Assembly: GCA_964016885.1 (NCBI GenBank)
Contig: OZ024742.1
Location: 219,356,001 to 219,420,000, forward strand
DNA: 64,000 bases
Reading direction: 5' to 3'
Source of the DNA: Eledone cirrhosa
Lineage: Eukaryota
Under the pieces are notes generated by a model that was given only the letters and a program-made list of their open reading frames with translations, did not search any database and had not been told where the DNA came from. Positions 15,173 to 50,706 of this stretch are shown here, piece by piece. A program made the position numbers and the translations under genes. Each line of letters opens with the position of its first letter. Position 1 is the stretch's first letter.

Positions 15173-15373
15173 CAATATTAGATATTATCTTGTCTCTTTC
15201 TACTTCTGTCTCCCGTATCTTTTGCTGAAGCTGCACTACCTTCTGTTCATAGTGAGTTTTCATGGCATTCAGTTTATTTTGATTTTTTTCCAGTGCTTCA
15301 ATTAACCGTTCTTTCAATGTCATTTCACATGTTAACTCAGCAAGATTTTCATGGACATTATCAGAGCCCATAC
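15173..15373 (-). CDS. KIF21: KIF21 exon (G)MGSDNVHENLAELTCEMTLKERLIEALE...ISNI
   Basis: 201 bp, phase 1-1; LAELTCE..KERLI coiled-coil motif; gtaaat donor. Confidence 0.9.
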
Positions 15374-17261
15374 CTTCAATTGAAAAACAGATTATAGGTA
15401 AAGAAATCTTAGTGTGATATATGAATATAATGTGTATGTATATATTTGTTAATGTTCCTGCTTGAAATGAGGTGAAGCATAATTTAAGGCAAAGTACTAA
15501 ATACATGAAGCAGAGTGAATATATTTTTATTACATTAATCACTGACAGGACTAGCTTTTCTTTCTCCAAGAATTCATTTTAGATGGATTTGTAGAGGAGC
15601 AAACAACAAGTCCAGTAAAGTCACTAATTGAATATATACATATAATATACATATATATATACACGCACACACACAAACAAATCAAGATGGATTCAGTAAG
15701 AAACTGGTTAGACCATTATTCACTAGTATCAATACATATATGGATAGAAAATCTAGTGAACAATAGTTTCTGTGGATTGAGAATTAATCATAAACAAAAT
15801 ATTTCCATTCATTCAATTCCTAATAGAATTAAAACAAATCCAAAATGGCAATGTGAAATATGTTACAAGTGGTTACTGCTAAAAAAAAAACCCAACTTCA
15901 TTGAGAGACAATAATAGTACTTCTAAATCAAGGTTAACTGGTGACCTCTTTGCAACATACACATTTAGTAGGAACAATATGAGCAACTAACATACAGAAA
16001 ACTACTTGACTGTATTTCTAATTCATAGTCTTGGAAAACTCATTTTCTAGTGTCAACTTTTTTTTTTATTAAGTAAACCAGTTTCAGACTTGCTAACAGA
16101 AAATTAACAAAGCCTGCCACCATTCCAGTGTTTGTGAGTGAAAAACAGTTAACTTTCTATCACTGTTGAAATTCACTGAATCAATCTTTACAACCTGCTT
16201 TGAGCCCAGAGGCTCATCAGACCAGTGTTTATCTCTGTTTCCGTGGCATTAAGCATATATCTCATCAAGCATTAAATATAATTTGTAATATTGGTAGTCA
16301 GTATTTTTTTACCATATTTGATGAAGATGCTGAGTTAATAAGATGTCAAACTATAGGCTTTAAACTTTTACATACCAAAGAGACCACTTGAAGGACTACG
16401 ATACCAGCTCAACTGAAACTGTCTATAATTCACTGAGATTATACCTTTTTCTCTAAAGTATTCAAACTCCAACTTAAGGAGGTTTATTAAACTTGCAAAG
16501 TACTTGATTATTTTCAAAAATAATTTAAGCACAGAGTATTTCATTAGAAATGTAGACTTGTATTTTGTACTATTCTCAATGATTTATTCCACAATGCTAG
16601 AAATAGATAGAATAGTGAAGGAACTTCACTATTGTAGTGAGGAGGAATACTGTAAATTTGGCAAGTGCTTTATTAGCTTGCATTGACTAATTTCAATCTT
16701 CTTTTGGACTTCGGTATGATGTCTTCACAACATAACCTGATTTCACCACTTCCACTGAAAGAAACCAACTGTAAAATCTCTCTCAAATCACATGCAACCA
16801 TTTTAAACGGGTAATGTAGTCTTGAAAATATTAAAATTGAAGAAATAAAATAGGATTGTAATGACTGATCACAGTTCTGTTCAAATCATAGTTGGTCGCT
16901 AGCTAAAAACAAAAACACCATACAAATGAGTAACATTTCTCTTGACTAGATCATTAATTATTCAGGCAATATTAGAAACAGGAAGCCAGAAAATCAGAAG
17001 ACATTCACATAAAAATATAAAAAGGTTATATATGTATATATATATATATTGTAATAATAAAATTGAAGACTAAAAATATTTTAATAAATATATATATATA
17101 TATATATATATTGTAATAATAAATTTGAAGACTAAAAATATTTTAATAAATATATATATATATATTTATAAGGAATAAACTAGTATTAAACTAGTAAGAC
17201 CATTATTCAACAGAGTACTCAATACTTGGGATAGAGTGTGACTATATTAGAAAGATTCAGG

Positions 17262-17350
17262 GTCTGACTGGTGAGCTCTAGCAGTTTCGACAGCTAATTC
17301 CAGACTGTCAACAAAACTACTTTCAGTAGACTGGCCATCTCGTCAGAGGC
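17262..17350 (-). ncRNA. Type I hammerhead ribozyme motif with long stem II
   Basis: GCCT-CTGACGA-GATGGC[...]GCTGTC-GAA-ACTG-CTAGAGCTCAC-CAGT-C-AGAC: intact core, GUC triplet, one stem I mismatch. Confidence 0.7.
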
Positions 17351-17648
17351 ATAGCTTAGGTGACTGATGTGACAATAAAATGATAGGTTGTCCATACAAG
17401 AGTATAAGCTGTCCATATAAGGGTAAAGGTCCTTTATAGGTTGTTAAAGAAAAGTTTTAGAATAAATTGATTATATTATTTTTTTATATATATATTTTCT
17501 CATAATGTGATAATGTGTGTGGGTGACAGGGCATATTGTGTGTGTGCATGAGTGTGAGTGTGTGTATGTATATGGGGATATATAAGAAAAACTGTGGTAT
17601 TGTAGTGGTGAGGGAAGAATTTGGCTGAGTTGAAGAATACCCAAAATA

Positions 17649-18887
17649 CAGGCTGCGGACGATATTTGTTCGCAAGATTACTGTCTAGGAAAAAATAACA
17701 CTAATATTTTTTAAGATATATTTATCAAACTTGGGTCAGTTTGTCTTCATGACTTGTTCTTTCGATCTCACTCGATAAACCCGCCATTGGCTTTGATGAC
17801 GGCCTTCGTCACTGTCCCCCGACTTAGGCCCCTAAAGGCACTTGTGATCCTGGCCTTCAGATCGTCTTTCGTATTGCAGCTCCACACAAAGAAGTCGAGG
17901 GGGTTGCAGTCAGCGAGCTGGGAGGCCAGATGTCAGGTGAAGTGTGGTCGACGAAGTTCTGACAGCCAGGTTTGGGTCTTTCGGCTGGTATGGCAGGGCG
18001 CTGAGTCTTGCTGTCACACGTATGGCCTACCTGCAGCTACCTGGTCGATCCAGGGCTTTACTACCTCGCTCAGAACGCGGATGTAGCCATCGGTGTTCAG
18101 CTTGAAGCCCTCAGGGAAGAAATGAGGTGGCATGACGTCACCTTGACTGCTGACGACACCCAAGACCAATGTTGTCGCTGGAAACTGTGTGCATGACTCT
18201 GGGTACGTCTTTTTGGACGAGACAGCGGGCCACCTGTTGTTCTGGGAGTTGATCTTCTGGTCTTGGCAGAGGCTTTTCTCGTCGGAGAAAATCCACAGCA
18301 TGTCTGGCTCCAGTGGGTGTTTCAACTTGTTGATCAGCTTCTTTGCGTGCTTCAGTCACTTTTCTTGCATCGCCTTTAACAGAAATTGTCCTTTCCTCAT
18401 CTTGTATGAAACGTAGTGAATGTCTTCATGTACCACCAGCCTAATGAGCTTTTCATCCACACCTTTCTCCCTTGCAATGGCCCGCAGTGACTTGCTAGGT
18501 TCATTGTTGACGATATTCTGAACTTCAGCGACGAACTCGGGCGTTCTGAAGGCGTCAGATTGTCGATCATGTGTTTTCCTCTCTGATGTTGTTTCGTAGT
18601 CGAATCCTGAATCTTCCAATTCCTTTCTGACCTTTTCCACCATTCTCCTGCCGACGCTGAGAAAGTCTGAAATTTCCTTATTTGTCCTCCCGGCACGGAT
18701 TCCAAGAAGAACTCCGTGTCTCTTCCACAAATTTGGAGGTTCAAAATTATTCATAATCAATTATTCTGAAAATAAATAATGGAAATATAGTCACTGTTTT
18801 TATGAAGACAAGAGTGACAACGGAAGTAAAAAAAATTAGCATAAAATTAGCAGTTGAAAATTGCGAACAAATATCGTCCACACCCTG
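17649..18887 (-). mobile_element. Tc1/mariner-superfamily transposon (maT/DD37D-like), transposase pseudogene
   Basis: ~27 bp TIRs CAGG(c/g)TG(c/t)GGACGATATTTGTTCGCAA, TA flanks, motifs WIFSDEK, VMPPHFF, QQDSAPCH, WPPSS..CNPLDFFVW with in-frame stops. Confidence 0.9.
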
Positions 18888-19076
18888 TATATATAAACAA
18901 ATATATAAAGAACCTTTACCCTTATATGGACAACTTATTTTACACATCAGTCACCTAAGCCATGCCACTGAGGAGATGGCCAGTCCACTCCAAGTAGTTT
19001 TGTCAACAATCTGGAATTAGCTGTCAAAACAAATCTCAGCTGTCAGGCCCTGATTCTTTCTAATGTCTGTGTGTGT

Positions 19077-19144
<68 letters not shown>

Positions 19145-19501
19145 GATTGTTTAATGTTTACTTGTTCTGCTCATCTCAATTTTATAGTTCTGGTATCTCA
19201 AATTAATACCATTGAACAACAAATGTATTATAGACACCCTATATATTTCCGTAGGTACTTAGTACCTGTGGGGGTATTAATCTCATTTCTTTCTCTCACA
19301 CACACTCACACACCCACACTAAGTGAGGAGAGGCTTTGCACAGGGCCACACCCACTCTCTGAACATTGAATGCATTTGCTCAAAAAGAAGAACTGGTCAA
19401 CATCATTGGATGCAAACAAAGTCACAGGTTTTATATCAGAGTGACCTTCACCTAAAGAGATGTCTTAATGAAGACTAGGAGTCTCTTGCTCCACAAAAAA
19501 A

Positions 19502-19559
<58 letters not shown>

Positions 19560-19859
19560 GTGGAATGAAATACAGTGGCAGGATGTTTAACATTCATAAC
19601 ATTATAAAGCAAAAGTAAATGAACCTTTTTTAAAGGTAAAATTAGATAAATTAAAAATAAAAGCCACAACAATAACCAAACCAGTGATATTTAATTAAAA
19701 TTTTTGGAAAGTCCATGCAAAATTTGAATATTTTGATACACTATTGTGCCATTGTTTTGCTTGCTTTCTATTTTCATAAATGTTGACAGTTTTATAGAAT
19801 AAACAAATTTTAAATTCTAGAGGTATTTGTGCTTTTACTTTTATTTGTTTTATTAGCAT

Positions 19860-21010
19860 CATTGATTATTAACTGTGTGATCTTAGAGGCATTTGTTGAC
19901 TTGAAGGTTTTTAACACCATGCTCCACAGTTTAGTGATTGCTGAGAAAACTGGGGTAGAGGAATGGCTTGCGATAGCCATGCAAGCCATATACAGGGGTG
20001 CTTTCAGCAAAGAGTTAGTAATGAGGAATTTAGCATATAGGTAGGTGTCCATCAAAGGTTAGTTCTTATCCTCTAGCAGTTAATTGAAATTCTCCAGGTG
20101 AAAAGAGACTTAAAGACTGTAGGAATTCCTCTATGCTGTCACTCATTCTCAAAGTTAAATCCATTTAAGAATTAGAGGAAAAGTCCATAACATGCAAACA
20201 TGGTCTAAAACTGAAGGCCTAAAGATTGAAGGCCTAAAGATCAATGTCGTAAAGATGAAAGTTTTAGTAAGCAAGAAAGAAAACAAAACACTACTACTAA
20301 CAAATGGTAATGCTAGATATGTAGAAATTATAAAATTCCTATCTACTCCCTGTCTACCCAATGCAAACAATGGATACACAAAAATGGAGTGGAATCACAA
20401 GCAGACTGACAAAAAAAGGATTTCATATGTAATAGATACACAAGTATAATTAGCAATAAGAGCACCCAAGAATTGAAGACTCGATTGCTCAGAAATTTTA
20501 CCAGATGTAGCCAATAGCTTATGTTACCTATGTAATCTAATCAACAGTGGAGGTAGTTCTTGTGAATACATAGTAGCCAGAATAATGATGGGGTAAAAAA
20601 AGTTCAGGTGGCAGTTACCCCTGTTCACAATAAAATACTTCTCTCTGCATTAAAAGAAGACAGTTTTATGCTTGTGTATGATGTATGATATTGCATGCCA
20701 ATGAGACATGGGTGCTGAATGTTGAGGATATGTGAAGGATGGAAAGAAATGAGGTGAGCATGCTCCATTGGATATTTCATATCAGCATTCATTATTGAAG
20801 GAGCACAAGTGTAAAGAGACAAAAATTAGACATCAGATCAATTCACTGTAATGTCCAAGAGCGGAGACTGTGGTGGTATGAGCATGTGAGGCACACGAGA
20901 AATGATAGTAGGGTGTAAAAATGTTGAATGAACAAAAGCAGAAGGGGCCGGCAAAAAAGGAGGACAGGCTGAAAAAGACAAGAATTAGTATAGACTGATC
21001 TCAGAATACT
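19860..21010 (+). mobile_element. Old, heavily degenerate RTE LINE fragment
   Basis: Remnants AFVDLKVF, GVEEWLAIAMQAIY, GLKINVVKMKVLVS. Confidence 0.7.
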
Positions 21011-23368
21011 AAGTCACTCAAAGAAAATGGCATCCATACGAGAATATGAATATGATTATGATGACTGTGATGGTAGCTGCAGTAATATATTTTCATGTAG
21101 TGCTTGAAGTAGCTCTAATTTCATGATCCAAATGGATTTTAGCGTCTGCCCCAGAGTGACAACATATTCTGATATTTCCATATAAATTAGTTAATTGTTT
21201 CCATTTGGCATCTCATTGTGGGCAGAAATTTTCTCTTTAAATTATATTTTTTTAAAAGGTCCACTATGATTACAAATGAAATTTAAATGTAGTGATTGCC
21301 AATTATATGGTTGGGAGGACCCTCAATTGTGTCGACGACATAACCTCTCCTGTGCATTTGGTAGAATGTGAAATCGTATATATGCAAGATGCAGATCAGC
21401 AGCCCTGCTTCAGTTCTGACTTGGTCCATGTAGACCCATCCAAACCCTTGTTAGCAGGGAAAGCAGACATTATGATGAATGAATGATGATAGATGATGAA
21501 TGAATGATGAATGATGGATGGTGAATGACAATGATGAATATGACAAATAACGATGATGAATGATGAACAATAAAAACAGCAAAATATATTTTTATATTCT
21601 GGATGATAATAGTTCCTTTGATCAAATATAAAAGTGTAGTTGATAGAATCAATGCCAGGGTTGTGGGGATTGCAAAGTATACAAAAGAGAAAAGAAAACC
21701 AAATTTGGACAGGCAAAAAGTTTGTACAAGCCAACAAGTAAGTCTTTATAATGTTGCTTGACCTGCTAAAAATAGCAGTGAAATCACACCTTACCATCAT
21801 AAATAAAGGACACATGAATAATGTTATAGACATTATCACTGGGTGAACATAAAAACGCTATGATCATCATTGGAATGCCCTTCATCATAGGTCTCCTCAA
21901 TCAGAGCTGACCTAGGCTGAAAAAGCCAACAAGAGATTATTTGACATGCTAGAAATTGCAGTCAAATGTTCTACCATCTAAAATGAAAGATACTTATTAA
22001 TGCCGTCTTAGATACACTGTCTGAAAATAAAAATTCTTTTAATGGTGGGATTGTCATTCTTGAAACACCTTTGTTTAAGGTGTGAATCGAATGAGACCAG
22101 GATATTAACAGTAACTATCTACTGTAAATAATTTAGTTCAGTGCTGTAGTAATTCTACCAACTCACACAGTACCAATACATTTTATTGAACATAAGATGG
22201 ATTTTACTTCTTGTGAAGAGTAGACAAACCCTTTAAGACAACAGCAGAAAGGAATATGTATTACACGAAGTCCAATAGTTCTATATAATACCAACAGCTC
22301 AATACCCGATGAACAAGTTTTCTTTAATACTCATTCCGTTGTGTTTTATAGCCATTAATTCTTAAAATCCTGTTCCAGATGAAACCACATTTGTAAGATA
22401 TTCTTGAAAAGCACAAAACAGCACCATGACTGCCTCACATTAAAAATTAAACTCTTTAATTTACTGCAAATTTTTTACAATGATCTGTCCACTTGTAAAA
22501 ATACTATAACCATTTAATTTAACAAACCCATTTTTAGATATTTTCTGCTAAATCATTATCAGATGTTAAATGTTAAACATTCAAATCTAAGTTATTTACA
22601 ATATATGACCAACTAAAAAGCCAGCTGATTAACATACTTTAATTAGTTGTTTCCATATCTTAGTGAGTCAAGGAAAGCATGTTCATACTGTGGCCCAATC
22701 TCCACTAATTCTTTCATCAACTACCCAGGGGATTCAATAAGAAACAGAAACATTAAAAGTGCTAATTATTATTCTTCAAAATGAACTCTACATTGATGTA
22801 AATATTGCATGGCAAAGCTCCAAGATGAGCCAGCCCTGCAATAACTGAACATTGTTTAAATGTTATATGCAGACAATGTTGATGATGATACATGCCTAAT
22901 AAAACCTACAATGTGTGTGGCGGGTGAAAAATAATAAATCCATTCCACAACTTCAATAAGCTATTATTTTTAGATATGTCCACGTAAATGCACACATATG
23001 TTTAATAGCTGTAACATAAATATAAAGCTAAAATAGGGTAGGAATAAATGGTAGCAAAACTGAAAAGAAATCATGCTGTGGAAGGAAAATAAATCAGAAC
23101 ATATTTAGTAATTAATTTTAATTTAACTGCTTTAAATAGAACAAGTTTAAGCAATAAATACAAATAAACTGCAATAAACATAAGCCATATCTCCAACAAC
23201 AAAATAAAAAGGGTACATATCAAAAGTTAGAAATATAACTGCACATATAGTATGATAGGCTGTAATTTAGAAATGTTTAGGTCAAACATAACTGCAAGTA
23301 AACTGTGAAAATGACATGAAGCATGCAGAAACTTTGTTGGTAAGAGGCACATCTCAAAACCAAGTTAC

Positions 23369-23407
23369 CTGTGAAGCTCCATAATGTGTATAGAGAAGCT
23401 GTGAGAG
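23369..23407 (-). CDS. Candidate 39-nt (or 30-nt) cassette exon (A)LTASLYTLWSFT(G)
   Basis: tttctcttctcag acceptor, second in-frame cag 9 nt later, CAG|gtaact donor, phase 1-1, no stop. Confidence 0.4.
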
Positions 23408-25072
23408 CTGAGAAGAGAAACAATTGCAAGAGTATTTAAGAAAATTTCACCAGCCATTTGAAAATGATGTATTTCATATCAAAATAATTCAAAGTTTACA
23501 TATTCATGAAACAACTTTACACTAAGTATATATTCCCTCAATACAGCGACAAAATACAAATCAATTCGGAATGACTGATTAAGAATGTTAAACATTAAAG
23601 CATATCAATTGAAAAGTTCCTCATCAAAATTTATAAAAATAAACGATTTTTCCAAAAACACACTAAATAAATTTTATGTAAATGAAAGTTCTAAGTTCTT
23701 AAAGTGTTGGTTGAATGATCTTAGGGTATAGATAATTATGACAAAATTATGTATAAGTATAAATTCCCACTGCAAAGTGAACGTGTAGGCGCCACGGAAA
23801 AAAGCCCCCATCACTCACTATAAATGAGATTGGTGTTAGGAAGGGCATCCAGCTGTAGAAAATCAAGCCAGAATCAGTTCCCATATGAGCAAGACAAGGT
23901 CAGCCGACTGGACACTGCCCACAACAGGACAACCCATCTAACCCATGCTAGCATGGAAGAATGGATGTAAAACGATGATGATGATGATGATATAGTAGGC
24001 TTTTGAACTTATCAAAATACAAACCATTTAAAAAATTATATGAATTGTTGTTATAACAATTATCAAAATTATTATCAAAACATTCTATTGATAATCACAA
24101 ACTCGAGATAATTTCAAAATTTAAAACATTAAGCAAAATGCTGTATATGTGAATTAAAGACCCGTCTAAAATACATAAATAATCTAGTCAACTCAAAGTT
24201 CTTTTATTACAAGATGAATCTGAAATAAATAGTAGGATACTGTAAAACAAATTTTCACAACATTTAAATAAGTGATCAAAAAAGCACACAGAGAAATTGT
24301 ACAGTTTTAAAGGAAAGGGGAAAAGATCTGGAACAGATGTAGCAAACACTGACCACAAGAAATACAAAAACACAATCATACATGCAAAAACCATTCTATA
24401 TATATATATAACATGAATAGTACACAAAAACTAAATTGACACAAAAGCATATTTGGTGATTTAGCTAAATTTTGTTGCTATAAAGATAGTCCTATCTGTT
24501 TAAACTAACCATACTTAGTCATGTTAACATGTTTGGTAAGAGGCTTCGCAAACACAGCTATGTCATTTTTTCTTTTTGTTTCATTGACACAAACATCATT
24601 AGTATCATAATATCAACACAACATCATTAGTATCATAATATCTATGCCAAGACTTCTCAGAAAAAGATAAAATATTAAAATAAAATTAGTGTTTGATTTT
24701 TAAACTGTATATATTTTATTGCTGAGCTCTGTAAACCAAAAGTCAATTAGTGAACAACTATGCATGCATGGCTCCATAACTCCCGATGGAATCGTAGTGG
24801 CATACAGTATTTTCTAGGGCATATTTTAAGCTTGGCAGAGCCCATCTCTCTCCAGGACTGAACACAGCAGATTTCTCCCAAAGGAAAGAAAGTGAAAAAG
24901 AGATATAGAGGAAGAATCGACTCCAGTATTAGACTTGTACTTTTTTTTTTTTTTAAAATCGATCTTAAAAGGATTTGAACTCAGAGAGGCAGAACTAATA
25001 CCATAAAGCATTCTATCCAATGTTCTAATACCTCTGCCAATACATCACCTTTGTGAACAGCTATACAATCCA

Positions 25073-25110
<38 letters not shown>

Positions 25111-25614
25111 AAAAAATAAAAATCACAGGTGGTTGAAATCAGACTACAAGCTTTAACTTTCTATACTATCACTGGTGTTGCACTGCTGCAGCCAAAACAC
25201 TTATCACATCATTTATGTTCTGTCTAAAGATATTTAAAAGAATTTTTTTTTCTGTTCAATCCATCAGTTTTGATTTACTATAAGTGATATTTTAAAATAC
25301 CATTCGTCCTATTAATAAAATTTCTTGAAAATATTCCTAAATGAATTTATCATCCAATCAACTATTACTAGCTAGCAAACAAATTTCTGTATTCGAAAAA
25401 TGTTAATGGGTTCTTTATCTTACACTATCAGATTTAGAAACTATAATAAAAAAATCTCAGTCAAGTTTATATTAATGCTCAGCTTTCAGTTACACTTAAA
25501 GAATTTACTATAAACTTAAGGATTTCTTTGTTAAACAGGAAAGCTATCACAATTCTTACCTATGAGATAGAATGAAGAGGGTATCAACATACATGCATGA
25601 GAGAAAAGCATGCA

Positions 25615-26878
25615 GAGAGGAAGAAAGAGAGAGAGAGGAGGAGAAGAGAGGAGGAGGAGGAGGAGGAGAGAGGAGGAGGAGGATGAGAAGGGAGGAGGAG
25701 GATGAGAAGAGAGGAGGAGGAGGAGGAGAAGAGAGGAGGAGGAGGATGAGAAGAGAGGAGGAGGAGGATGAGAAGAGAGGAGGAGGAGGAGAAGAAGAGA
25801 AAGAGAAGGAGAAGGAGGAGAGAGAGAGAGAGGAAGAGAGAGAGAGAGAGGAGGAGAGAGAGAGAGAGGAGGAGAGAGAGAAGAGGAAGAGGAAGAGGAG
25901 GAGAGAGAGAGGAGAGAGAGGGGAGAGGAGGAGGAGAGAGAGCGAGGAGAAGAGAGGAGAGAGAGAGGAGAGGAGGCGAGGCGAGAGGAGAGGAGGCGAG
26001 GAGAGAGAGGAAAGAGAGAGGAGAGAGAGAGGAGGCGAGGAGAGAGAGGAGAGAGAGAGGAGGCGAGAGAGAGGAGGCGAGGAGAGAGAGAGGAGGCGAG
26101 GAGAGAGAGAGGAGGCGAGGAGGCGAGGAGGAGAGGCGAGGAGGCGAGGAGGAGAGGCGAGGAGGAGAGGCGAGGCGGGGCGGAGAGGGAGGAGGAGAGG
26201 GGGGCGAGGGCGAGGAGGGAGAGGGGAGGGCGAGAGAGAGGAGAGCGAGAGAGAGAGAAAAAAGAGAGAGAGGAAAGGAGAGAGAGAGAGAGAGGAAAGA
26301 GGAAAGAGAGAGAGAGAGGAAAGAGGAAAGAGAGAGAGAGAGAGGAAAGAGGAAAGAGAGAGAGAGAGGGGGGAAAGAGAGAGAGAGAAGAGAGAGAGAA
26401 AAGAGAGAGAGAAGAGAGAGAGAGAAGAGAGAGAGGAGAGAGAGAGAGGAGAGAGAGAGAGGAGAGAGAGAGAGGAGAGAGAGAGGAGAGGAGAGAGAGG
26501 AGAGAGAGGAGAGGAAAGAGAGAGAGGAGAGAGAGGAGAGGAAAGAGAGAGAGGAAAGAGAGAGAGGAAAGAGAGAGAGGAAAGAGAGAGAGAGGAAAGA
26601 GAGAGAGAGGAAAGAGAGAGAGAGGAAAGAGAGAGAGAGGAAAGAGAGAGAGAGGAAAGAGAGAGAGAGGAAAGAGAGAGAGAGGAAAGAGAGAGAGAGG
26701 AAAGAGAGAGAGAGGAAAGAGAGAGAGAGAGGAAAGAGAGAGAGGAGAGAGAGAGAGGAGAGAGAGAGAGGAGAGAGAGAGAGAGGAAAGAGAGAAAGAG
26801 AGAGAGAGAGAGGAAAGAGAGAGAGAGAGGAAAGAGAGAGAGAGAGGAAAGAGAGAGAGGAAAGAGAGAGGAAAGAAA
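25615..26878. repeat. ~1.26 kb GA-rich polypurine low-complexity tract
   Basis: Nearly pure G/A on the + strand, including (GAGAGAGAGGAAAGA)n units. Confidence 0.95.
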
Positions 26879-27219
26879 AAAATAAATTTTAATCTTAATC
26901 AATGTTTCACAGAATGCCTGGAGTGATGGCAATTTGGATCAGTGGTAATGGTGGTGGGGAAGGGGAACTAGAGTGGTGAATGCAAGCAGGAAAAATTTAA
27001 TTAAAAGGAAAACAAGTATAGATTTAAAGTGCAAGATCATGATTTGAAGTGCAACAAATCAGCATATGAAACTAGGAACTATAAAAACTTCAGAGGTGCA
27101 CAAAATAAAAGCTAAGTTTGAGAATAGCTATCATAAATAAGGATTCATAATGGGTATTAGTAAAAATAAAAACTGAGTGAAATAACTAAATATATAAAAC
27201 AAGTATAAATTACCCTTAA

Positions 27220-27434
27220 CCCTTTAGCATTCACATTACTCTATATATACTATTATATTTTCATGGTAAAGGCTTTGCCTCGCATAATTATCTCACATAA
27301 TATCGAATCTGAGATTTTGAAAGTATTTATTTTAGAGAATACCTTAACATCAGTCTGAGTGACCAGTTACAGCCAGTTTCAACAGAAAAAGGAAGAGAAT
27401 TCTGGCGGGTTTGGCCCGTTTGAACATTAAAGGG
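27220..27434. mobile_element. piggyBac-like MITE
   Basis: TTAA-CCCTTTAgcaTTCA ... TGAAcatTAAAGGG-TTAA; related ends at about 13751 and 39366. Confidence 0.7.
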
Positions 27435-28367
27435 TTAATTGATCATTAACATTGAATCAAGGTAAAAGAATTATATACATCCACTTTAATATACGTAATA
27501 TCATTAAGAAAAGTTCAAATAGCTTTCAATATTCTTCAAGAGTAATAAATAATAATGTTAGCAGTTGAAACTAATAGCATTATGACATATATTATTTTCT
27601 TTTTGTAACTTTATGTAACACGACCATCTGTTCTGCTTGTGCTATCAAACAGAATGTATTGTTGCATTAAAGCAGGCCACTGCTAACAATTTCCTTCATT
27701 TATATAAATAGTCTTTCATTTTCTTTTGTATATTTTACTATTCATAGTAAGACTAAAGTAGTATAGTTAATATGAAGCATTGCGAGATGTAATAAACGAT
27801 TGATAAATTGTACCGGCTTCCAAAAAACTTATTAAATTAATGACTATTTTCTATAATTAATGTCAATATTTTTTTTAAAATTGAGATCATGGAAATCTCT
27901 CACTTCCAATGCCTGTTCACAATGAAAATAAAAAACAAATCTAATCAACCTAAAGTGACATAATTAAAGTTAAAGAGGAAAACTAAGAGAATTAACATGT
28001 TATTGCCAGAATTATAACAAAGAAAATCTAATAACAAAGAAAATCTAAATACAGTCTTCAGCAACACGAAAATGCTAATAATAAATAAGTTTTAGAATTA
28101 TTAATTATTTAGAAAGAAGAGTAACCAATATACATTAAAAGACATAATTACACATCCTAGCAAGATTTATGATAGTCAGAGGAGAAGTATAATTCATAGA
28201 GAAACAATGCAAGAGATCTAAGAAGATTGGTTTGAGCTTCTATACTAAGTGGTCAGTAGTGAAACACCTTACCTTCACAACCACTATACCCTGAAATATC
28301 ATGTTAAAATACACTGGGTAAAACACTACTTTATTTTGTTTCATTTGTCATCATTTGCCCTTATTTT

Positions 28368-28549
28368 CTTGGCAGTATCGGTAGAGAGTCGGACGCCATG
28401 CTTTCCAGCATAGTTACGTCCCTTTACGATCTGAGTTCAAATCCCGCCGAGGTTGACTTTGCCTTTCATCCTTACGGGGGTCGATAAAATAAAGTACCAG
28501 TAATGCACTGGGTAATTGCTGGCCTTGTGCCTAAAGTAGAAACAATTAT
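28368..28549 (+). mobile_element. SINE family A, near full length
   Basis: A-box TGGCAGTATCGG, B-box GAGTTCAAATCC, central domain. Confidence 0.85.
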
Positions 28550-30747
28550 TTTCTACGGCATTGTACCAGCTTTTTGATAATTATCGGTCTTTTACCACTA
28601 TACCCAGTTTCTATACCAAGTGGTCAGAAGTGAAACACCCTTAGCTTCACAATCACTATACCCAGTTTCTATAAATTCATACAGAATCATCTAAAAGACA
28701 GTGAACATAGACATATCATTGAGTAAAATATAGAGCTGCCCAAGGATTTTATTAGATTTTGTGGCTTTATCAAGATTTCTTCTTCACACACATATTCCTG
28801 GGAGGGTCGTGGGGGAAGAGTCCTCAAACACTCCTTCCAATGGGTCCTGCCAGAAGTAACAATTTTCAATTGATCCAACTGGATCCCCAAGCGAGACCTG
28901 CTGAGCTAATGGATGCTATCCATTCATCTTGCTCAGGGTCATGCTGGCACTTGAAACTAATAGATTTCAACAGCTAAATTTCATGTGAAGTGAAATAAGA
29001 TGACGATTTCTGTTCAAATACTAGTATATTCTGTAAGGGTAGACCTATTCACAAAATCTACAATACTGCCTTTCAGTGTGTCCCAAATATGAAACATCTC
29101 CTCCCAAAACCCCAATAACTATTTTCCACATCTAAGTGAATGAAGGCAATATAAAATTGTGTCCTACTCACTACTCAGAAACAACATAACCACATTTGAA
29201 CTCACAACCCAGTGGTCTATTCGACCTCTATACAAGTAGAGCTATTAGCTTGACTATAAAATTCGGCTAAGTGAACTCATTGTCATAATTCAACGAAATC
29301 ATAACCAGAACAACAAACTATAAAAATTAATAAATAGACTTAAGACTTATCTAAATGTAACTTCCATTACTGTCACACCTTAATACCTTAGCTCAAACAT
29401 GTCACCATTTTAAACCCCCCCCCCCCCCAAAAAAAAAACCTATGCCAGCATGTTGGGGATGAAAAGAGTTAAATTTAATTAGAAATTTTATACTTTTAAT
29501 TTGCAGAATAATGCTTGTTTTGGTCAAGATTAATTCTGAAATATTGATCTAGTAGATTAATCTAATTAAGCTTAAATTTAATTTAATCAGTTAATGTATT
29601 GTTTAAATGACTATTAAAGACTTGCTTAGATTAATTAAGTTTAAGAATTTCTAATTAGTTGCATTAATTTTTGTGTAAACTATCTTTATGAAGTAAATCA
29701 CATGAGACTTTGTTGAGATATTCAATACCATCCCCCTCTGCACCCCCCCCCCCACACACACTCAAGAAATTTTATGACTTTCTTTTCAAGCACTTTTAAT
29801 TGATGTACATAATTGTTACTAATACATTGATATAGTTTTAATAAGCTGACAAGCCAAATTTTTTTTTTTTTCTAGGTTGAAGGTCTGGGCCGCTACAGCA
29901 CATTAACCACTACTCAACATACACATCTTGTCACAGCTGACTGGTTCCACAATACAGTCAGGACATGAGGACAATTTGGAGGCTTGAGATGCAAGATAGT
30001 TTTGCGTCAAGAGCAAAAATTGCTGCTGTATAAAAAGGAGCAGGGCGATCAGAGTTGATGGAAGCTATGGCATATGAAAATCTAGGAAGACCTGGGATGA
30101 GGTGATAAAAGCTGACCTTGCATAATTGCACCTCCCAAAGACAATGACACAGGATTGAGATCTTTGGTGTTATGCAGTAACACAGAACACCTGCCTTCCC
30201 ATGTGCACGGACTGAAGCATTCATCTAGTATGCACAGCTTAACCAATATCCTCCCCCCCCTTTCATACACCTCCTACGCCCTAATGCCCTCAGATCTGAT
30301 CACACAACCCTTCTCCCATACCATTACACCTTTGCCCCAGTCCCCAGTGTAAAGTGGTTGTGAAGGTGTCATAACAAAAAAGCACTCAGCCAACACTGTA
30401 AATGTGGTTGGCATTAGGAAAGGCATCCAGCCATAGAAACCAAGCCAGAAACTGCGAAAAAGATATGGTCACTTGACCCGACTTGCCTCAAACAGGTCAA
30501 CCTGTCTAATACTAGCTACCATGGAAAATAGATGTTAAACGATGATGATCATGTGTGTGCGCGTGCATGTGTGTGTACACACACAGAGAAAGAGGCATAT
30601 ATACACATATATACCTATTGTATGAATTTATGAACCAAATGAGAGAAAGCAGATACTCTACATTTAAATGCCATTTAGGTTATTTTGTTTTAGTTCCACT
30701 TAAAACCAAGAAAAAAAACAAATATATATATATATATATATATATTT

Positions 30748-31360
30748 GCTGTATAACAAAGTGCAGGGCAATAAAGATAGACGGTAGCCACGGAATAGGC
30801 AGACCTAGAAAAACCTGGGACGAGCTGATAAACTCCGACCTCACACACTTACACCTCTCCAAGACAATGTCACTGGACCGAGACCTTTGGCGGTACTCAG
30901 TAACAGAGAGGACCCGCCTTACCACCGAGACCTTTGGCGGTACTCAGTAACAGAGAAGACCCGCCTTACCTAAATATATAGTAAAACCTACTCCAGCCAG
31001 TAGGCATCTCTAACAAAATACACCCCGTCCCACCACCACCACCCCATCCACACCACCCCGTTCTATGTAAAGTTATGTTGGTGCCGCGCCATCCAGGCCG
31101 AAACAAATGAGATCGTGTAGGTGTCACGACAAAAAAAACAGTCCACGCTGTAATGTGGCTGTGTAGGCAACACGGTAAAAACCTCCCAGACCCACACTGT
31201 AATTGTGGTTGGTGTTAGGAAGGGCATCCAACTGTAGAAAACCTGCCAGACAGTCCTATGCGAGCAAGACAATCACTCTTGCCTCAAGTGGGACTACCCC
31301 CGTCCAAACCCATGCAAGCGTGGAACACGGACGTTAAACGTTGATGATGATGATGATGAT
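30748..31360 (+). mobile_element. RTE LINE 3' fragment with a short internal duplication
   Basis: Same family as 32547-34270, opposite orientation; ACCGAGACCTTTGGCGGTACTCAGTAACAGAGA occurs twice. Confidence 0.9.
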
Positions 31361-31364
31361 TTGA

Positions 31365-31473
31365 ATTAAGACTCAAAGCAAATTCCTGCACTTAGATATA
31401 TTCACAGCGTTTCATATAAATATCTGCAGCCCAAGAGTTTATTGTTCCATTCTGCTGTGTAAAGGCCACAGAA

Positions 31474-31510
<37 letters not shown>

Positions 31511-31900
31511 AAAGAATAGAGGTGTAACACACAAGTTATTATATATTGGTAAACGGAATAGAAAATGCTGACAAATTGTTCACAGTTGAAAAATAGTTTA
31601 ATTAGGAATAAAAGAGGATTAGTAATTGTATTGGTTAGTAATCAGTTTTGGTTTTAAGTTTTACCGGTTGCGCATTTCTAAATGCTTTTCAAAAATAATT
31701 TTGAGATAGAGCGTCCGTGTTGTTTGCTCAAACAACACGGACGCGCTATCTCAAAATTATTTTTGAAAAGCATTTAGAAATGCGCAACCGGTAAAAACTT
31801 AAAACAACAACTAAATACTAACCAATACAATTACTAATACTCTTTTATTCCTAATTAAACTATTTTTCAACTGAACAATTTGTCAGCATTTTCTATTCCG

Positions 31901-31948
<48 letters not shown>

Positions 31949-32130
31949 TGCACATATATGATGATATTTGTTTGTATGTGTGTATAATTATATACCATTC
32001 AATGTATCTGTCCCTACTTTCTTCTGTGGCCTTTTCACAGCAGAATGGAATAATAAACTTTTGGGCTGCAGATATTTATACAAAACGCTGTGAATTTATC
32101 TAAGTGCAGGAATTTGCTTTGAGTCTTAAT
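31365..32130. repeat. Element with ~110 bp terminal inverted repeats (31365-31474 / 32021-32130)
   Basis: ATTAAGACTCAAAGCAAATTCCTGCACTTAG... mirrored at the right end. Confidence 0.85.
31549..31905. repeat. Near-perfect palindrome, ~178 bp arms, 2-nt spacer at 31727-31728
   Basis: Centre ...CGTCCGTGTTGTTTG-CT-CAAACAACACGGACG...; pairing continues to both ends with a few indels. Confidence 0.92.
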
Positions 32131-32145
32131 ATATATATATATATA

Positions 32146-32447
32146 TTAAAATAGATTAAAGTTTAAGCAAAGAATCGCTGCTTTCACCCTTAACGGGATC
32201 TTCTGAAACTAACAAAGTCAATCTGTAAACGCAGAAGTGAATATTTCGTTGCAACCGGAGGAAGACAGGAAGACGATACTTTGGTTCGTGGAAACGTTCC
32301 CTATGCAAATAAGTACTTATTTGCATAGGGAAATACGTTTTTTGAAATATTCACTTCTGCGTTTACAGATTGACTGTTAGTTTCAGAAGATCCCGTTAAG
32401 GGTGAAAGCAGCGATTCTTTGCTTAAACTTTAATCTGTTATTTTAAT
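32146..32447. repeat. Palindromic element with degenerate hammerhead motifs
   Basis: Arms about 32153-32248 / 32344-32436 and a perfect 36 bp central palindrome at 32297-32332. Confidence 0.9.
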
Positions 32448-32546
32448 AAATATTTGCTCTACGGTTCTTATATATTTGATATATATTTATCCTTATCGAG
32501 CCCTCTTTGGATTTTAGTCTTCAAATTTATTATTATTACTATATAT

Positions 32547-34267
32547 ATCATCATCATCATCATCAACGTTTAACGTCCGTGTTCCACGCTTGCATGGGTT
32601 TGGATGGGGGTTTTCCCACTCGAGGCAAGAGTGTTTGTCTTGCTCGCATAGGACTATCTGGCAGGTTTTCTACAGCTGGATGCCCTTCCTAACACCAACC
32701 ACATTTACAGTGTGGGGCTGGGAGGTTTTTACTGTGTTGCCTACACGGCCACATTACAGCGTGGACTGTGTCTACACGATCTCATTTGTTTCGGCCTGGA
32801 TGTTGTGGCACCAACATAACTTTACATTGAAGGGGCGGTGTGGATGGGGTGGGGGTGGGTGGGACGGGGGTGTATTTTGTTAGAGATGCCTACTGGCTGT
32901 AGTAGGTTTTACTTTGTATTTAGGTAAGGCGGGTCTTCTCTATTACTGAGTACCGCCAAAGGTCTCGGTCCAGTGACATTGTCTTGGAGAGGTGTAAGTG
33001 TGTGAGGTCAGAATTTATCAGCTCGTCCCAGGTTTTTCTGGGTCTGCCTACTCCGTAGCTACCGTCTATCTTTATTGCCCTGCACTTTGTTATACAGCTG
33101 TCGTCTTTCATGCGCATCACGTGACCATACCAATGTAGCCTTCTCTCGAGTAAACAACATCTGATCCCTCTTATTTCTAATTTTTTCCTTAGTTCGCTTA
33201 TGCTTTGGTGTTCATGTATGTTACTATTACACATCCAGCGGAGCATGCAAGCTTCGTTCCTCTCTAGTCTGCGTATATCTTCTGCACACAATGCGCAGGT
33301 CTCACTGCCATGCAACATTGCTGTTCGTATGCAGGCATCATACAACCTGCATTTCATTCTTAGGGAGAACCCTTTAGCGGCTAATAGTGGTATAAGCTCT
33401 CTGAAGTTTTTCCAACCAGTTCCGACTCTAGCTATTGTACTTTCAGAGCACCCTCCCCCACTGCTGATTTTGTCGCCCAGGTAACGGAAGCTGTCCACTA
33501 TTTCTATAGAACCCTCTGCGCAATTGAAAGAGCTAGTATTTTGTGGGCACTTGCTGCTACTTATTGCACCAGAGCACCGGCCACATGTAAAATCTATGTT
33601 CTTAGTTAGCTTACCTGTGATCCCACTACATCTTTTATGCACCCATACTTTGCATTTGGGACATAAAATGGAGTTTCTACCTACGCCTTTCCTACACACT
33701 GAGCATTGCCATTTCCCGGAAGGGACCGGCGCCTTATTTTCTTTCCTACAAACTAGAACTTTAGTCTTAGCCAGGTTAATTTTAAGGCCTTTTGATTCTA
33801 GGCCGTGCTTCCATGTTTGGAATTTCTTCTCTAGCTCGGCCATTGATTCAGCTATGAGCGTTAGATCATCTGCGTATAGGAGTTCCCATGGGCAGCCGGT
33901 CTTGAACTCCTCTGTTATAGCCTGAAGGGCAATAATAGGAGGGGGCTAAGAACAGAGCCCTGATGGACACCAACTTTTACGCTAAACTCTTCACTATATT
34001 CGTTGTTAATTCTAACCTTGCTGACTGTTTCTTTATACATGGCTTGTATAGCTCTGACAAGCCATTCGTCAACACCTAGTTTTCTAAGAGCCCACCAGAT
34101 AATGGAACGGGGGACTCTGTCGAAGGCTTTCTCCAGGTCAACAAAAGCTAAGTATAGGGGTTTACTTTTAGCTAGGTACTTCTGTAGTTGTCGTACAATG
34201 AAAAGAGCGTCTGTGGTACTTTTGCCTGACACAAACCCGAACTGCATTTCATCTAGATCAATTCTCT

Positions 34268-34270
<3 letters not shown>
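32547..34270 (-). mobile_element. 5'-truncated RTE-clade LINE (reverse transcriptase pseudogene)
   Basis: QFGF..GKSTTDA, AFVDLEKAFDRVPR, GVHQGSVLSPLL, WELLYADDL, Cys-rich insert, WYGHVMR; frameshift near 33930-33938; (GAT)n tail. Confidence 0.95.
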
Positions 34271-34311
<41 letters not shown>

Positions 34312-34316
<5 letters not shown>

Positions 34317-34462
34317 GTGGCTACACAACAGTGAGTTCACCATACCAAGAACAATTGTTTCACCTTAGCAGATCCTCAGCTCGTAATTTACGAGCTGAGG
34401 ATCCGCTCAGGATAAACAATTGTTCTCGGTATGGTGAACTAACTGTTGTGTAGCCACTTCTA
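34312..34462. repeat. 151 bp palindrome between (TA)n tracts, centred at 34387
   Basis: TAGAAGTGGCTACACAACAGT... / ...ACTGTTGTGTAGCCACTTCTA. Confidence 0.92.
34346..34383 (-). ncRNA. Minimal type I hammerhead ribozyme motif (Penelope-like-element style)
   Basis: CGAG-CTGAGGA-TCTGCTAAGGT-GAA-ACAATTGT-T-CTTG: intact CUGAnGA/GAAA core, palindromic stem III, GUU triplet, weak stem II. Confidence 0.65.
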
Positions 34463-34514
34463 CCTCACTCGTCCCATGGGCTGAGTGCTCTACCACTACG
34501 GATATTACCTTCCA

Positions 34515-35083
<569 letters not shown>

Positions 35084-35430
35084 TCATCATCATCATCATT
35101 TCATTTTACGTCCACTTTTCCCTGCTTGCAAGGGTGGGACGGGAACTGATTCTGGCTTGATTTCTACAGCTGGATGCCCTTCCTAACACCAACCTCATTT
35201 ACAGTGAGTGCTGGGTGCTTTTTTTTTGCCGTGGCACCTCCACGACCACTTTGCAGTGGAATGATAGTGACCCCAGTCCCTATCATCTCATTTCTACAGC
35301 TGAGTAAACTGGAGCAATGTGAAATAAAGTGCCTTGCTCAAGGAAACAACACATCACCCGGTCTGAGAATTGAACTCACAACCTTTCGATTGCAAGGCCA
35401 ATGCTCTAACCACTAAGCCATGTGCCTCCA
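35084..35430 (-). mobile_element. SINE family B, full length
   Basis: Reverse complement of 8928-9305, embedded in (TA)n. Confidence 0.88.
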
Positions 35431-35444
35431 TATAGATATATGTG

Positions 35445-35477
<33 letters not shown>

Positions 35478-35588
35478 GTGTATATATATATGTGTATATA
35501 TATATATATATGTGTATATATATATATATATATATGTGTATATATATATGTGTATATATATATATATATATATGTGTATATATATGTG

Positions 35589-35635
<47 letters not shown>

Positions 35636-35662
35636 GTGTATATATATATGTATATATATGTG

Positions 35663-35693
<31 letters not shown>

Positions 35694-35715
35694 GTGTATA
35701 TATATATATGTATAT

Positions 35716-35749
<34 letters not shown>

Positions 35750-35773
35750 ATGTGTATATATATATATGTATAT

Positions 35774-35807
<34 letters not shown>

Positions 35808-35824
35808 ATGTGTATATATATATG

Positions 35825-35855
<31 letters not shown>

Positions 35856-35958
35856 GTGTGTATATATATATATGTGTGTATATATATATGTATATATATA
35901 TATATGTATATATATATATGTGTATATATATATATATATATGTGTATATATATATATA

Positions 35959-36001
<43 letters not shown>

Positions 36002-36016
36002 GTGTATATATATATA
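35431..36016. repeat. (TA)n/(TG) microsatellite
   Basis: Direct inspection. Confidence 0.97.
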
Positions 36017-37532
36017 CACACACATACATCTATACACTGTAATACAAACACACACATTGAAATGCAAGCATGCATATACATGCAGTAATATATAAGCAAA
36101 TACAGAAACTGATACTCAAGCACATAAACACAAATGCACACATACACTCCTCCACATACACACCACACACGCATTAAAATAGAAACAAATATTCTTGCTG
36201 AAAATAGTTGACATTATTATATGAAGGCAGGTACAATAGTAATATATACAAATGTTATCAGTACATTTTATGTAACAAAATCTTCAGACTAAAGCTATAA
36301 CAGATAGAAATTAGATAAGAAACCAACTAAATCATAGACAATGTTTGGAAGTAAAATATAATTTGTGATCAACAACCAAAATGTTTTGGTTTAGAATTTG
36401 AATTGTTATGGTAACTACAAATTTTTTGATTGAATGAATATAAAACAATTATAATATAATGATTATATTAAAAGCTTGACTCCCCATACCTTGGTATTAC
36501 TATCAATATGAAACCCAACCAGTACCGACTGTATCTAACCAAGACAAGCCATATCTTGATATTATTATCACTATGAAATCCAACCAGTACTGTCTGTACT
36601 TAACTAAGACAACACTTATCTCATCTTCATAGAAGTATCTGATAGGTCTCTTAGACAGTTTAATGAGAGGAGTCTCAATCCTATCATATCATTTTTCTCA
36701 TGACAGGGGGAATGATTTAAACTTAGAACATAGAGCCAGAACAGATACTGCAAGGAGTTCCAGCCCCATAACTCACTACCTTGAACTGCAGCTTTACAAA
36801 CCTCAAAAGGACATAAGGCAAAGTTGATCTCATTAAGACAAACTCAGAGCACATACAGCTACAACAAACACCACACAGTATTTAATTCAATGCTCAAATA
36901 TCCACTAATTTACTGTCTTATACACACATGCTATGTATATGTGTTTTCTCCACATGACTGAATACATGTGTTTTTATGTTTCTTTTTAAATTGTTTTCCT
37001 TTCCTTCCTCTTCTCACTATCTATTTCATCTTTTATTTCCCATTCTATCTTCTGATGACAGAGTAGTGTCCGAAACATTAAAACTCTACTATATCAAGCG
37101 TTAAATTAATATATTCATTGTACTGTGTCAATTGCTTTGTTATTTCCGTTTACCTTTTGTATATATATATATATATATATATAACAAAATGGACATTAAA
37201 CATTGATGATTAGAGATTTCCATCATGCCAAGCAATAATTTGGAAAGTCAATATATATGATGAGAACATTTATTCATTGAGGCTGTGGAAATTGTATAGA
37301 AATATGTGAATTAAGATTGAGAAATGATTTGAAATGAAATAGAACTGATGTGGTTGCTGGTGTATGTGTATGTAGGGAGATGTGAATTAATGATGGAAAA
37401 TCAACTGGAATGGTGCATGTGTGTGTAGAAATATGGGAAACAATAAGATTTGTCCTAAAGCAGAATATTTCTGAACAGCTGAACAACTAAACAACGAGAT
37501 TACAGAACTGATCACACAGAAAAATAACTTAC

Positions 37533-37553
37533 CTATATCAGAGGAACTTAAAT
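37533..37553 (-). CDS. Candidate 21-nt microexon (D)LSSSDI(G)
   Basis: ttttccattttag acceptor, AG|gtaagt donor, symmetric phase 1-1 matching the host intron, no stop. Confidence 0.55.
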
Positions 37554-38839
37554 CTAAAATGGAAAACCTTTCTTTAACATTTTGAAGATTTTTTTTTCAG
37601 AAATGTTTTAAGGTGTTCAACTATTTCAGAGCAACTTTTAAAAAAAATGATTTAAATTGAATGAAATCTATTCAGTATTTTCATTACCAAAGTGAAATGT
37701 AACAAAAATTGAATTAAAATCTTTTCTATATAAAATTAAAACCATACTGCAAATTGTTAAATATCAAAAATAAATTCAGTATATATCTAAATCATTTTTA
37801 AATTGGTGAAGTTTAGCCTTTATTTTTGGGAAAGAGACATTTTATTCAAGCATGTATGAAATTTTAAATTAATAAAAATATTTTTTTTTATTGTTAACTG
37901 AAATAGGTAGAGCAAAAATTCAGATTAGAAAATAAATTTAAAAAAAAAACATTTGCATTAATATAGAAATTGTAAATAATATTCAATTTTGAATTTATAA
38001 ACTGAAATTAATATTATACAGTCTGATTAGAATTTTAATTGAAAACAATTCTTGGTTTCTGAAAATATCTCAGATATTAAAATTTTTTGACACTATGTCA
38101 AAATTATTATTCATGGGTAATGGATGGGCTTCATATATATTTTTGATAATTAAACATTGAATTCCAGTATTATAAAGAGTTCAACATCAAATAACTAAAG
38201 AATTGAGATTTATTCAGTTTACATCGACCAAATGAAAAACAACTATTATAATGATTATTAATCCTTTTGATGCCAAACCACCTGAATCTGCTCTTGGTTT
38301 AATGATGAAAATCTGTTTATTATGAAGTATATATATATGTGTGTGTGTATATATATATATATTCTAGTTGGCGAAAATCCAAACATTTTAGAGTAACTTC
38401 AGTCTGTGGATGGGTTATGATATACATAATAAATCTACACTACAAAGAAGGGTTTTCTTCATAATTAAAAGCTGATGAGATAACTAATTTCCCGTCATTG
38501 AAACATGCATCCCATTAATTATGAATTCTTTGTATTTTTTTGAGTGCATGTTGATTGTGTATGTGCATGTATGTATATATATATATTATATATACATACA
38601 TACATACATGTAGGTGTCACAACAAAAAAACACAGTCCACACTAATGTGGTCGTGTAGGTAACAGTAAAACGTTCCTAGTTCCACACTAAATGTGGTTGG
38701 TGTTAAGAAGGGCATCCAGCCGTAGAAAACCTGCCAGATAGTCCTATATGAGCAAGACACGGTCACCTGACCAACCTTGCCTCAAGTGGGGCAACTCTGG
38801 TTATAACTGGTATCTTCATAATCAACCATTGCTACTCAC

Positions 38840-50091: not shown

Positions 50092-50151
50092 TTTCTATTA
50101 TCGAGCACGAGAAGTTGAGACAGTACATTAGTGTAATACATAGGAAAAGTA

Positions 50152-50706
50152 CACCCGCCACGTCAGTGCTGACAGTCCACCCGCCACGTCAGTGCCGACA
50201 GTCCACCCGCCACGTCAGTGCCGACAGTCCACCCGCCACGTCAGTGCCGACAGTCCACCCGCCACGTCAGTGCCGACAGTCCACCCGCCACGTCAGTGCC
50301 GACAGTCCACCCGCCACGTCAGTGCCGACAGTCCACCCGCCACGTCAGTGCCGACAGTCCACCCGCCACGTCAGTGCCGACAGTCCACCCGCCACGTCAG
50401 TGCCGACAGTCCACCCGCCACGTCAGTGCCGACAGTCCACCCGCCACGTCAGTGCCGACAGTCCACCCGCCACGTCAGTGCCGACAGTCCACCCGCCACG
50501 TCAGTGCTGACAGTCCACCCGCCACGTCAGTGCCGACAGTCCACCCGCCACGTCAGTGCCGACAGTCCACCCGCCACGTCAGTGCCGACAGTCCACCCGC
50601 CACGTCAGTGCCGACAGTCCACCCGCCACGTCAGTGCCGACAGTCCACCCGCCACGTCAGTGCTGACAGGTGGACTGTCACGTCAGTGCTGACAGTCCAC
50701 CTGTCA
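50152..50706. repeat. GC-rich minisatellite, 26 bp unit CACCCGCCACGTCAGTGCCGACAGTC, about 20 copies, ending in a 17 bp inverted repeat
   Basis: Direct inspection; units near identical. Confidence 0.97.

Follow-up and report, generated by a model that had tools for sequence, protein, structure and literature searches.

The 64,000-nucleotide stretch of the Eledone cirrhosa genome analyzed here (the window) carries, most likely within a single intron of a KIF21-like kinesin gene, five short elements with hammerhead ribozyme motifs. These elements are almost certainly the 3′ ends of five families of Penelope-like elements (PLEs), that is, pseudo-long terminal repeats (pLTRs) with a hammerhead, with or without a tail. 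It is highly probable that these ends were inserted at (TA)n tracts, the back-to-back pairs among them likely arising by the PLE protein priming twice at one target on capped sense RNA. The families are new and of a known kind, and the palindromes are expected PLE by-products that should be annotated as such. The families were searched in the 3.0-Gb assembly; F1 to F5 denote the families of elements 1 to 5 and L numbers their loci. The parts of the elements are as follows.

17170–17638, minus strand: element 1, tailed arm of F1 with 3′ untranslated region (UTR), type I hammerhead (17350–17262, long helix II) and tail; ends approximate
18904–19064, plus strand: element 1, tail-less inverted arm; core starts at 18968, GAAA box mutated
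32139–32315, minus strand: element 2, tail-less arm of the Hydra-type family F2; variant core CAGAAGA starts at 32205
32335–32548, plus strand: element 2, tailed arm, F2; core CAGAAGA starts at 32384, tail at about 32448–32540
34312–34387, minus strand: element 3, tail-less arm, F3; core CUGAGGA starts at 34379
34388–34516, plus strand: element 3, tailed arm, F3; GAAA box mutated; tail at 34463–34516, then (TG)/(TA)n
36955–37160, plus strand: element 4, single decayed 3′ end of the old, presumably Neptune-like family F4; minimal hammerhead, core starts at 37052
38364–38449, minus strand: element 5, inverted tailed arm without hammerhead; ends approximate
38454–38560, plus strand: element 5, tail-less arm, F5; core starts at 38472

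Every family has longer copies that run into a PLE open reading frame (ORF) for reverse transcriptase (RT) and endonuclease (EN), in agreement with the Penelope link drawn in the original prediction from the window alone. A first look gave 343, 695, 1603, 3082 and 28 candidate copies for F1 to F5, no more than 40 of them being scored in each family search. The F2 ORF, of 621 amino acids in L150 and near full length in L310, has 1779 homologues in a set of 8000 scored sequences, and PF01541 is present in the first-ranked of them; the RT and GIY-YIG domains of the L150 ORF were assigned from motifs and homologues. It has DKT, a CxCX5C linker, CxxC and CxH, and L310 reads RWR where RWK is expected. 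Copies of F3 run into an ORF related to that of F2 (L155, L170, L173/L217; tblastn), with linker, CxxC and CxH present, and F1 reaches a PLE endonuclease remnant, also with CxxC and CxH, through a 3′ UTR of about 1.3 kb (L214, L252, L254, L259; tblastn). For F5 an upstream PLE ORF remnant was recognized in L244/L269 by tblastn to the F2 ORF only. Upstream of F4 lies a decayed RT/EN in L267 and L268, with two database homologues carrying RVT_1 and a CxxxxCxxC linker. Four of the families look like members of the Hydra clade, and F4, by its motifs, is presumably Neptune-like. In L165, the F2 tail is similar to the stretch where the ORF begins (0 of 2000 shuffles), which would follow from an origin of the tail in the first part of the element body.

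The majority letters of the families, drawn from 36, 63, 86, 52 and 30 arms (F1 to F5), form the core and helices I to III of a type I hammerhead in all five. F1 has a canonical core, a 4-bp helix I, a 6-bp base of a long helix II, a 5-bp helix III and a GUC site. F2 has the core CAGAAGA and, in helix II, U-U followed by 3 bp; CAGA occurs in 48 of 63 arms and CUGA in 3. F3 combines the core CUGAGGA with a palindromic loop III and a GUU site, while the hammerhead of F4 is minimal, position 9 being followed by an additional A and helix III being replaced by ACGU, and the majority core of F5 is CCGAUGA. The canonical core C3 U4 G5 A6 N7 G8 A9 / G12 A13 A14 is thus kept in F1, F3 and F4, position 4 being A in F2 and by majority C in F5. 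Both U4C and U10.1-U11.1 are known in natural hammerheads (PMC3088659), and the string U4A does not occur in the accessible portion of that paper. In F4 85% and in F1 82% of helix cells are paired, versus 15–51% when the alignment is slid. At the DNA level no similarity joins the arms of different elements (best cross-family E 0.2), in line with the original prediction, and the main structural evidence is that one architecture is kept by five different sequences. Self-cleavage of these hammerheads is a prediction. The CUGA of element 5 likely arose by CpG decay from the F5 majority CCGAUGA, and the copy of F4 in the window is decayed in all of helices I to III.

The inverted pairs proposed for the first three elements were confirmed at 17246–17438/18904–19064, 32139–32315/32335–32548 and 34312–34387/34388–34462. 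Element 5, earlier taken for a lone copy, proved to have an inverted tailed arm, so that elements 1, 2, 3 and 5 are inverted pairs with one tailed arm and element 4 is single. The same anatomy recurs in the genome. With the tail as sole selection criterion, 30 F3 loci were collected, one of them the window copy. An inverted second arm is present in 19 of these; it ends at +65 to +67 in 18 of the 19 and carries the tail in none. Ten further F3 loci were similar, four having an inverted arm that lacks the tail and one a pair of tailed copies separated by 180 bp, and exactly one arm is tailed in all 21 distinct F3 palindromes from the first search. The 3′ ends are of two discrete kinds, before and after the tail. 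The arm junctions differ in nearly every copy, by overlap, direct join or short filler; therefore, the palindromes are not copied as units. Either arm may be the longer one, the tail-less arm being longer in L150, L310, L176 and element 2, and by kilobases in L150 and L310; hence, it is not a snap-back copy of the tailed strand. At most 30 nt separate the 3′ end from a (TA)3 or longer tract in 15/21, 35/41, 39/45, 31/51 and 6/10 copies of F1 to F5; the background frequency is 6% across the window with its flanks and 15% over all loci. The predicted preference for microsatellites therefore extends, as (TA)n adjacency, to all five families.

In the young families F2 and F3, short copies tend to begin at a single A bordering helix I. 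The tailed arms of the tail-chosen F3 loci start between −22 and +20 of the core in 22 of 30 cases, one at −77 and seven at −288 or beyond; base-level mapping of 85 F3 arms placed 25 starts at −8 and 17 at −7. Element 3 is one of the copies whose tail-less arm starts at the modal −8. Long F3 copies carry C at −9. Once the seven arms extending beyond −25 are left out, G occupies −9 in 11 of the 25 arms starting at −8 versus 2 of the 53 ending elsewhere (Fisher p 3e-5), and most of the other 14 arms at −8 join the partner arm directly. In F2, a non-genomic base precedes the A at −5 in 2734 exact short-start matches, versus 0 in a reversed control, and this base is G in 56 of the first 100 matches listed, where 25% is expected from 16.5% G. 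The corresponding numbers for F3 are 322 short-start matches and G in 42 of the first 100 listed, with 20% expected. In 30 F2 loci examined in their context, G stands in 14 of the 18 ends that are neither explained by the partner arm nor long copies. G was found on both arms of a single locus in L022, L285/L286 and L136, and in one F5 locus both arms begin at helix I and carry the G. In F2, F3 and F5 the modal ends fall on the 5′ strand of helix I, and the modal A's lie in initiator-like contexts. In LINE-1 insertions, a fixed start with an additional G is known to mark copying of the 5′ cap. A splice junction was rejected as the source of the extra G in F3, since no AG precedes the start and the sequence in front of the G varies among copies; a fixed 5′ boundary for F4 was dropped once longer copies appeared. 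Secondary clusters of F2 5′ ends, mapped in incidental copies, lie near −114 and −51 from the core (L021, L066, L157, L274 and L114, L236), possibly reflecting T-tract microhomology or alignment breaks.

Building on the work of Frangieh et al. 2024 (PMC11167929) and on the family counts, we propose that a Pol II transcript would begin at helix I inside the pLTR, and that the PLE protein would nick both strands of the (TA)n tract. Reverse transcription would then be primed once per target strand, at two internal RNA sites located before and after the tail. Each cDNA would either truncate or run to the transcription start, copying the cap; many would run off the cap because the RT start sites are only 70–170 nt from the transcription start. 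Finally, the two cDNA ends would be joined head to head by microhomology or filler. The template must be uncleaved RNA, because the copies span the predicted cleavage site. One tail per pair together with a fixed start with G fits two independent primings on capped sense RNA, rather than snap-back. Of the separate steps, run-off at the cap is somewhat more likely than not. The chances are about even for the full proposal, in which PLE palindromes are twin-primed, cap-terminated cDNA pairs, the transcript starting exactly at helix I, the RTs starting before and after the tail on opposite target strands and both running off the capped end, and the recently very active F2 doing so with A at core position 4. 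If true, the genome records the PLE start site and the sense-strand template in thousands of copies, against an antisense self-priming model. The origin of PLE head-to-head inversions and the RNA strand used are called open in PMC8557442, PMC3846280 and PMC11167929; the fixed start with its extra G and the single tail per pair provide sharp testable predictions on the PLE mechanism, and the A4 and C4 core variants, seen across entire families, matter for the question of whether cleavage is required of PLE hammerheads.

Several observations weigh against parts of the proposal: (i) many of the mapped F3 arms belong to loci picked because they resemble the window palindrome, a copy without the G, and this bias is avoided by the genome-wide start patterns; (ii) among the F3 matches listed the start is also often preceded by T (35/100) and A (23/100); (iii) in 30 F2 loci examined in context, 5 of 19 G ends were possibly templated by the partner arm; (iv) start site and cap are deduced from sequence, and non-templated addition of C at any fixed uncapped RNA end would also give G; (v) stem covariation, on which the prediction had counted besides the core and helices that the majority letters do form, is in F4 not above shuffles (283/500), and in F1, although no shuffle reaches it (0/500), consists mostly of CG>UA and GC>AU transitions at CpG sites explicable by CpG decay; (vi) a direct Pfam scan of the L150 F2 ORF returned 0 families; (vii) the ORF link of F4 consists of decayed remnants in two to three loci; and (viii) no partial-tandem master, in which a 5′ pLTR would adjoin the ORF, turned up in the loci examined, and therefore 3′ or solo pLTRs may also be the source of the short RNA.

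This last point leads to a different account of the short copies, a modified form of the original prediction, in which they would form a self-propagating non-autonomous class: solo pLTRs or palindromes would keep an internal promoter and the RT start sites, be transcribed and be re-mobilized in trans like short interspersed nuclear elements (SINEs). Fixed-start short copies do number in thousands, no 5′ pLTR is joined to a body in these loci, an internal promoter is known for Penelope (PMC2377424), and in rotifers the presence of pLTRs in cis was enough for trans-mobilization (PMC3846280). We nevertheless hold this account to be unlikely. None of 60 columns was diagnostic at p<0.01 in either F2 or F3, with only five long F3 copies, and the divergence of short and long copies is similar (3.3% vs 2.5% in F2; 3.0% vs 2.7% in F3), which argues, with limited power, against separate non-autonomous lineages; moreover, the junctions differ per copy, as they would not in palindromes copied as units. 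Together with the ORF-bearing long copies, these results also speak against the retrozymes, or dedicated class of non-autonomous hairpin elements, that the original prediction had seen here.

A second account accepts PLE ends and explains the clustered 5′ ends by RT stalling at helix I, and the palindromes by snap-back self-priming, for which, following PMC3846280, the template may be antisense. The coincidence of the modal ends with the 5′ strand of helix I would fit stalling, and some junctions overlap at self-complementary sites. However, the G excess is limited to one position (11/25 vs 2/53) and may occur on both arms of one locus, and the tail-less arm can exceed the tailed one by kilobases. 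The initiator-like contexts of the modal A point the same way, and we regard stalling with snap-back as very unlikely. Two independent primings on capped sense RNA remain our preferred explanation of the pairs.

Inverted truncated PLE copies with a one-sided tail have been described (PMC8557442, PMC3846280), and opposite-strand hammerhead pairs 100–700 bp apart were attributed to truncated PLEs (Cervera and de la Pena 2014, PMC4209133). PLEs of the Hydra clade combine DKT, CxCX5C, CxxC and CxH with (TA)n insertion (Craig et al. 2021, PMC8557442). The present families resemble them in being short, with a single RT-EN ORF and these motifs, in a hammerhead close to the 3′ end, in (TA)n adjacency and in one-tailed inverted copies (F2 and F3; partly F1 and F5), but differ in their tails of about 65–90 nt instead of 30–40, in position 4 of the majority core, which is A in F2 and C in F5, in U-U at 10.1-11.1 (F2, F3), in the 51-nt helix II region of F1 and in RWR for RWK in L310. 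With the minimal PLE hammerheads of PMC4209133 they share the type I fold, a short palindromic helix III, the extra base after position 9 (F4) and the opposite-strand pairs; in contrast, helix III of F1 has 5 bp, and F2 and F3 are without the G10.1-C11.1 pair termed highly conserved there. In the Poseidon element PAc of Anolis both strands are cut in AT-rich DNA, and two internal RT starts bound the tail of an uncleaved RNA template (PMC11167929). The AT-rich target, the two 3′ ends around the tail and the uncleaved template are common to PAc and the present elements, whereas the latter have one tailed and one tail-less arm per pair and a fixed 5′ start with an extra G; in its accessible portion that report gives no strand difference in start site for PAc and does not address the 5′ end. 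Non-LTR retrozymes (bioRxiv 10.64898/2026.07.22.740005) are likewise non-coding, have a type I hammerhead and are related to PLE pLTRs, but they form head-to-tail tandem units, while the copies here are single or head-to-head and continuous with ORF-bearing copies; no hammerhead-bearing tandem array was found within the window. A search that covered part of the literature returned no statement of a cap-derived G or of start-site run-off in PLEs; given that partial coverage, we cannot claim with confidence that the G excess and the core variants are unpublished.

In the window itself, canonical CTGAnGA...GAAAC cores start at 17346 and 34379 on the minus strand and at 37052 and 38472 on the plus strand. 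Of the five elements to which the original prediction had assigned the motif, elements 1, 3, 4 and 5 therefore have it, while element 2 carries CAGAAGA on both arms; with two canonical cores per strand and identical cores on the arms of element 2, the suspected bias of intact cores for the host pre-mRNA strand disappears. Counting core plus GAAAC in 17246–38521 with a spacer of at most 35 nt, which leaves out the 17346 core (51-nt spacer), gave four matches, one of them (18150) within a DNA transposon, versus a mean of 0.28 in local dinucleotide shuffles, none of 100 reaching four. This excess is weak once a predicted stem II of at least 3 bp is required (one match vs 0.07; 7 of 100 shuffles reach one). 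An Rfam scan with E up to 10 returned noise from microsatellites and hairpins but no hammerhead. Folding of eight window arms revealed no unusual stability (z from −1.5 to +0.25), the three-helix fold being the minimum-energy structure solely in the right arm of element 2; among 12 single-strand folds only an F5 copy beats all its shuffles, decayed copies being uninformative. That the motifs are chance matches, or derivatives of DNA transposons of the type of miniature inverted-repeat transposable elements, in AT-rich repeat DNA would suit the missing Rfam match, the marginal stem-filtered counts, the poor single-copy folds and the core match at 45121, which comes from an unrelated repeat without conserved GAAA box, but is next to impossible, being refuted by the family alignments, in which five unrelated majority sequences form all three helices around the core, and by the ORF links, while the asymmetric ends and variable junctions depart from the symmetric ends and fixed interior of such transposons. 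A sixth hammerhead family based on the cores at 16220 and 45121 was rejected, these belonging to an unrelated repeat whose copies do not conserve the GAAA box. This SINE-like dispersed repeat, with CTGATGA in its 3′ part, occurs at 16220 and 45121 (both minus), 49234–49293 and 50832–50943, and is a source of false hammerheads.

The window copies are probably inert and decaying and, because of this decay, an effect of the elements on the host is unlikely. All five lie between two minus-strand exons of the KIF21-like gene. Flanking exons on the minus strand, near 13900 and 15300, match Pfam KIF21A_4th. An acidic exon runs up to 39174, where GT follows, and its successor begins at 15373, behind an AG. 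The exon phases are compatible; therefore, one intron is likely, as had been proposed, and all five elements most likely share its 23.8 kb. Two features frame or interrupt the elements.

15374–39173, minus strand: intron of the KIF21-like kinesin gene, likely single (splice edges, phase, Pfam)
17646–18890, minus strand: remnant of a DNA transposon, not part of the PLE, by its motifs presumably Tc1/mariner-like; 30-bp terminal inverted repeats, broken ORFs

The 1.2-kb transposon was inserted at TA between the arms of element 1 and has only a weak HTH_23 match. The notion that the pairs are devoid of coding capacity needs amendment accordingly for the interval inside pair 1, which holds this transposase remnant. 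In the pre-mRNA the inverted arms of element 3 would be predicted to pair with one another, which likewise speaks against an effect on the host. At 32365–32390 the A4 core variant of F2 gives a pyrimidine-rich CAG with a possible upstream branch motif, which may resemble a 3′ splice site lying within the hammerhead core.

Other insertions surround the elements. Two F2 tail-end fragments in a 62-bp tandem (17027–17137) adjoin the tail of element 1. A further palindrome of 355 bp with a one-sided extension lies at 31521–31905 beside (TA)n and (CA)n and is multi-copy among the family loci examined; no CUGAnGA core was found in it, and it looks like the end of another PLE family. It is enclosed by a 110-bp inverted pair (31365–31474 and 32021–32130; 94.5%), the insertions being nested at one (TA)n site. 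Elsewhere in the genome, GIY-YIG-type remnants of at least three other PLE families stand beside family insertions (L003:2121-2567, L020:2-511, L032:2662-3297, L033:1887-2360), PLE families piling up in shared (TA)n tracts, and at G000:C5:30058610-30455570 at least ten F1 3′ UTR matches lie on one strand within 400 kb, mostly 20–50 kb apart, which suggests tandem segmental duplication. At 30025–31341 and 32520–34250 the window holds an RTE-like remnant of a long interspersed nuclear element (RVT_1, PHD-like finger) on the minus strand together with inverted 3′ fragments of the same family upstream, and homogeneous 26–27-bp minisatellites (95–97% matches) extend over 40977–42743 and 50148–50701.

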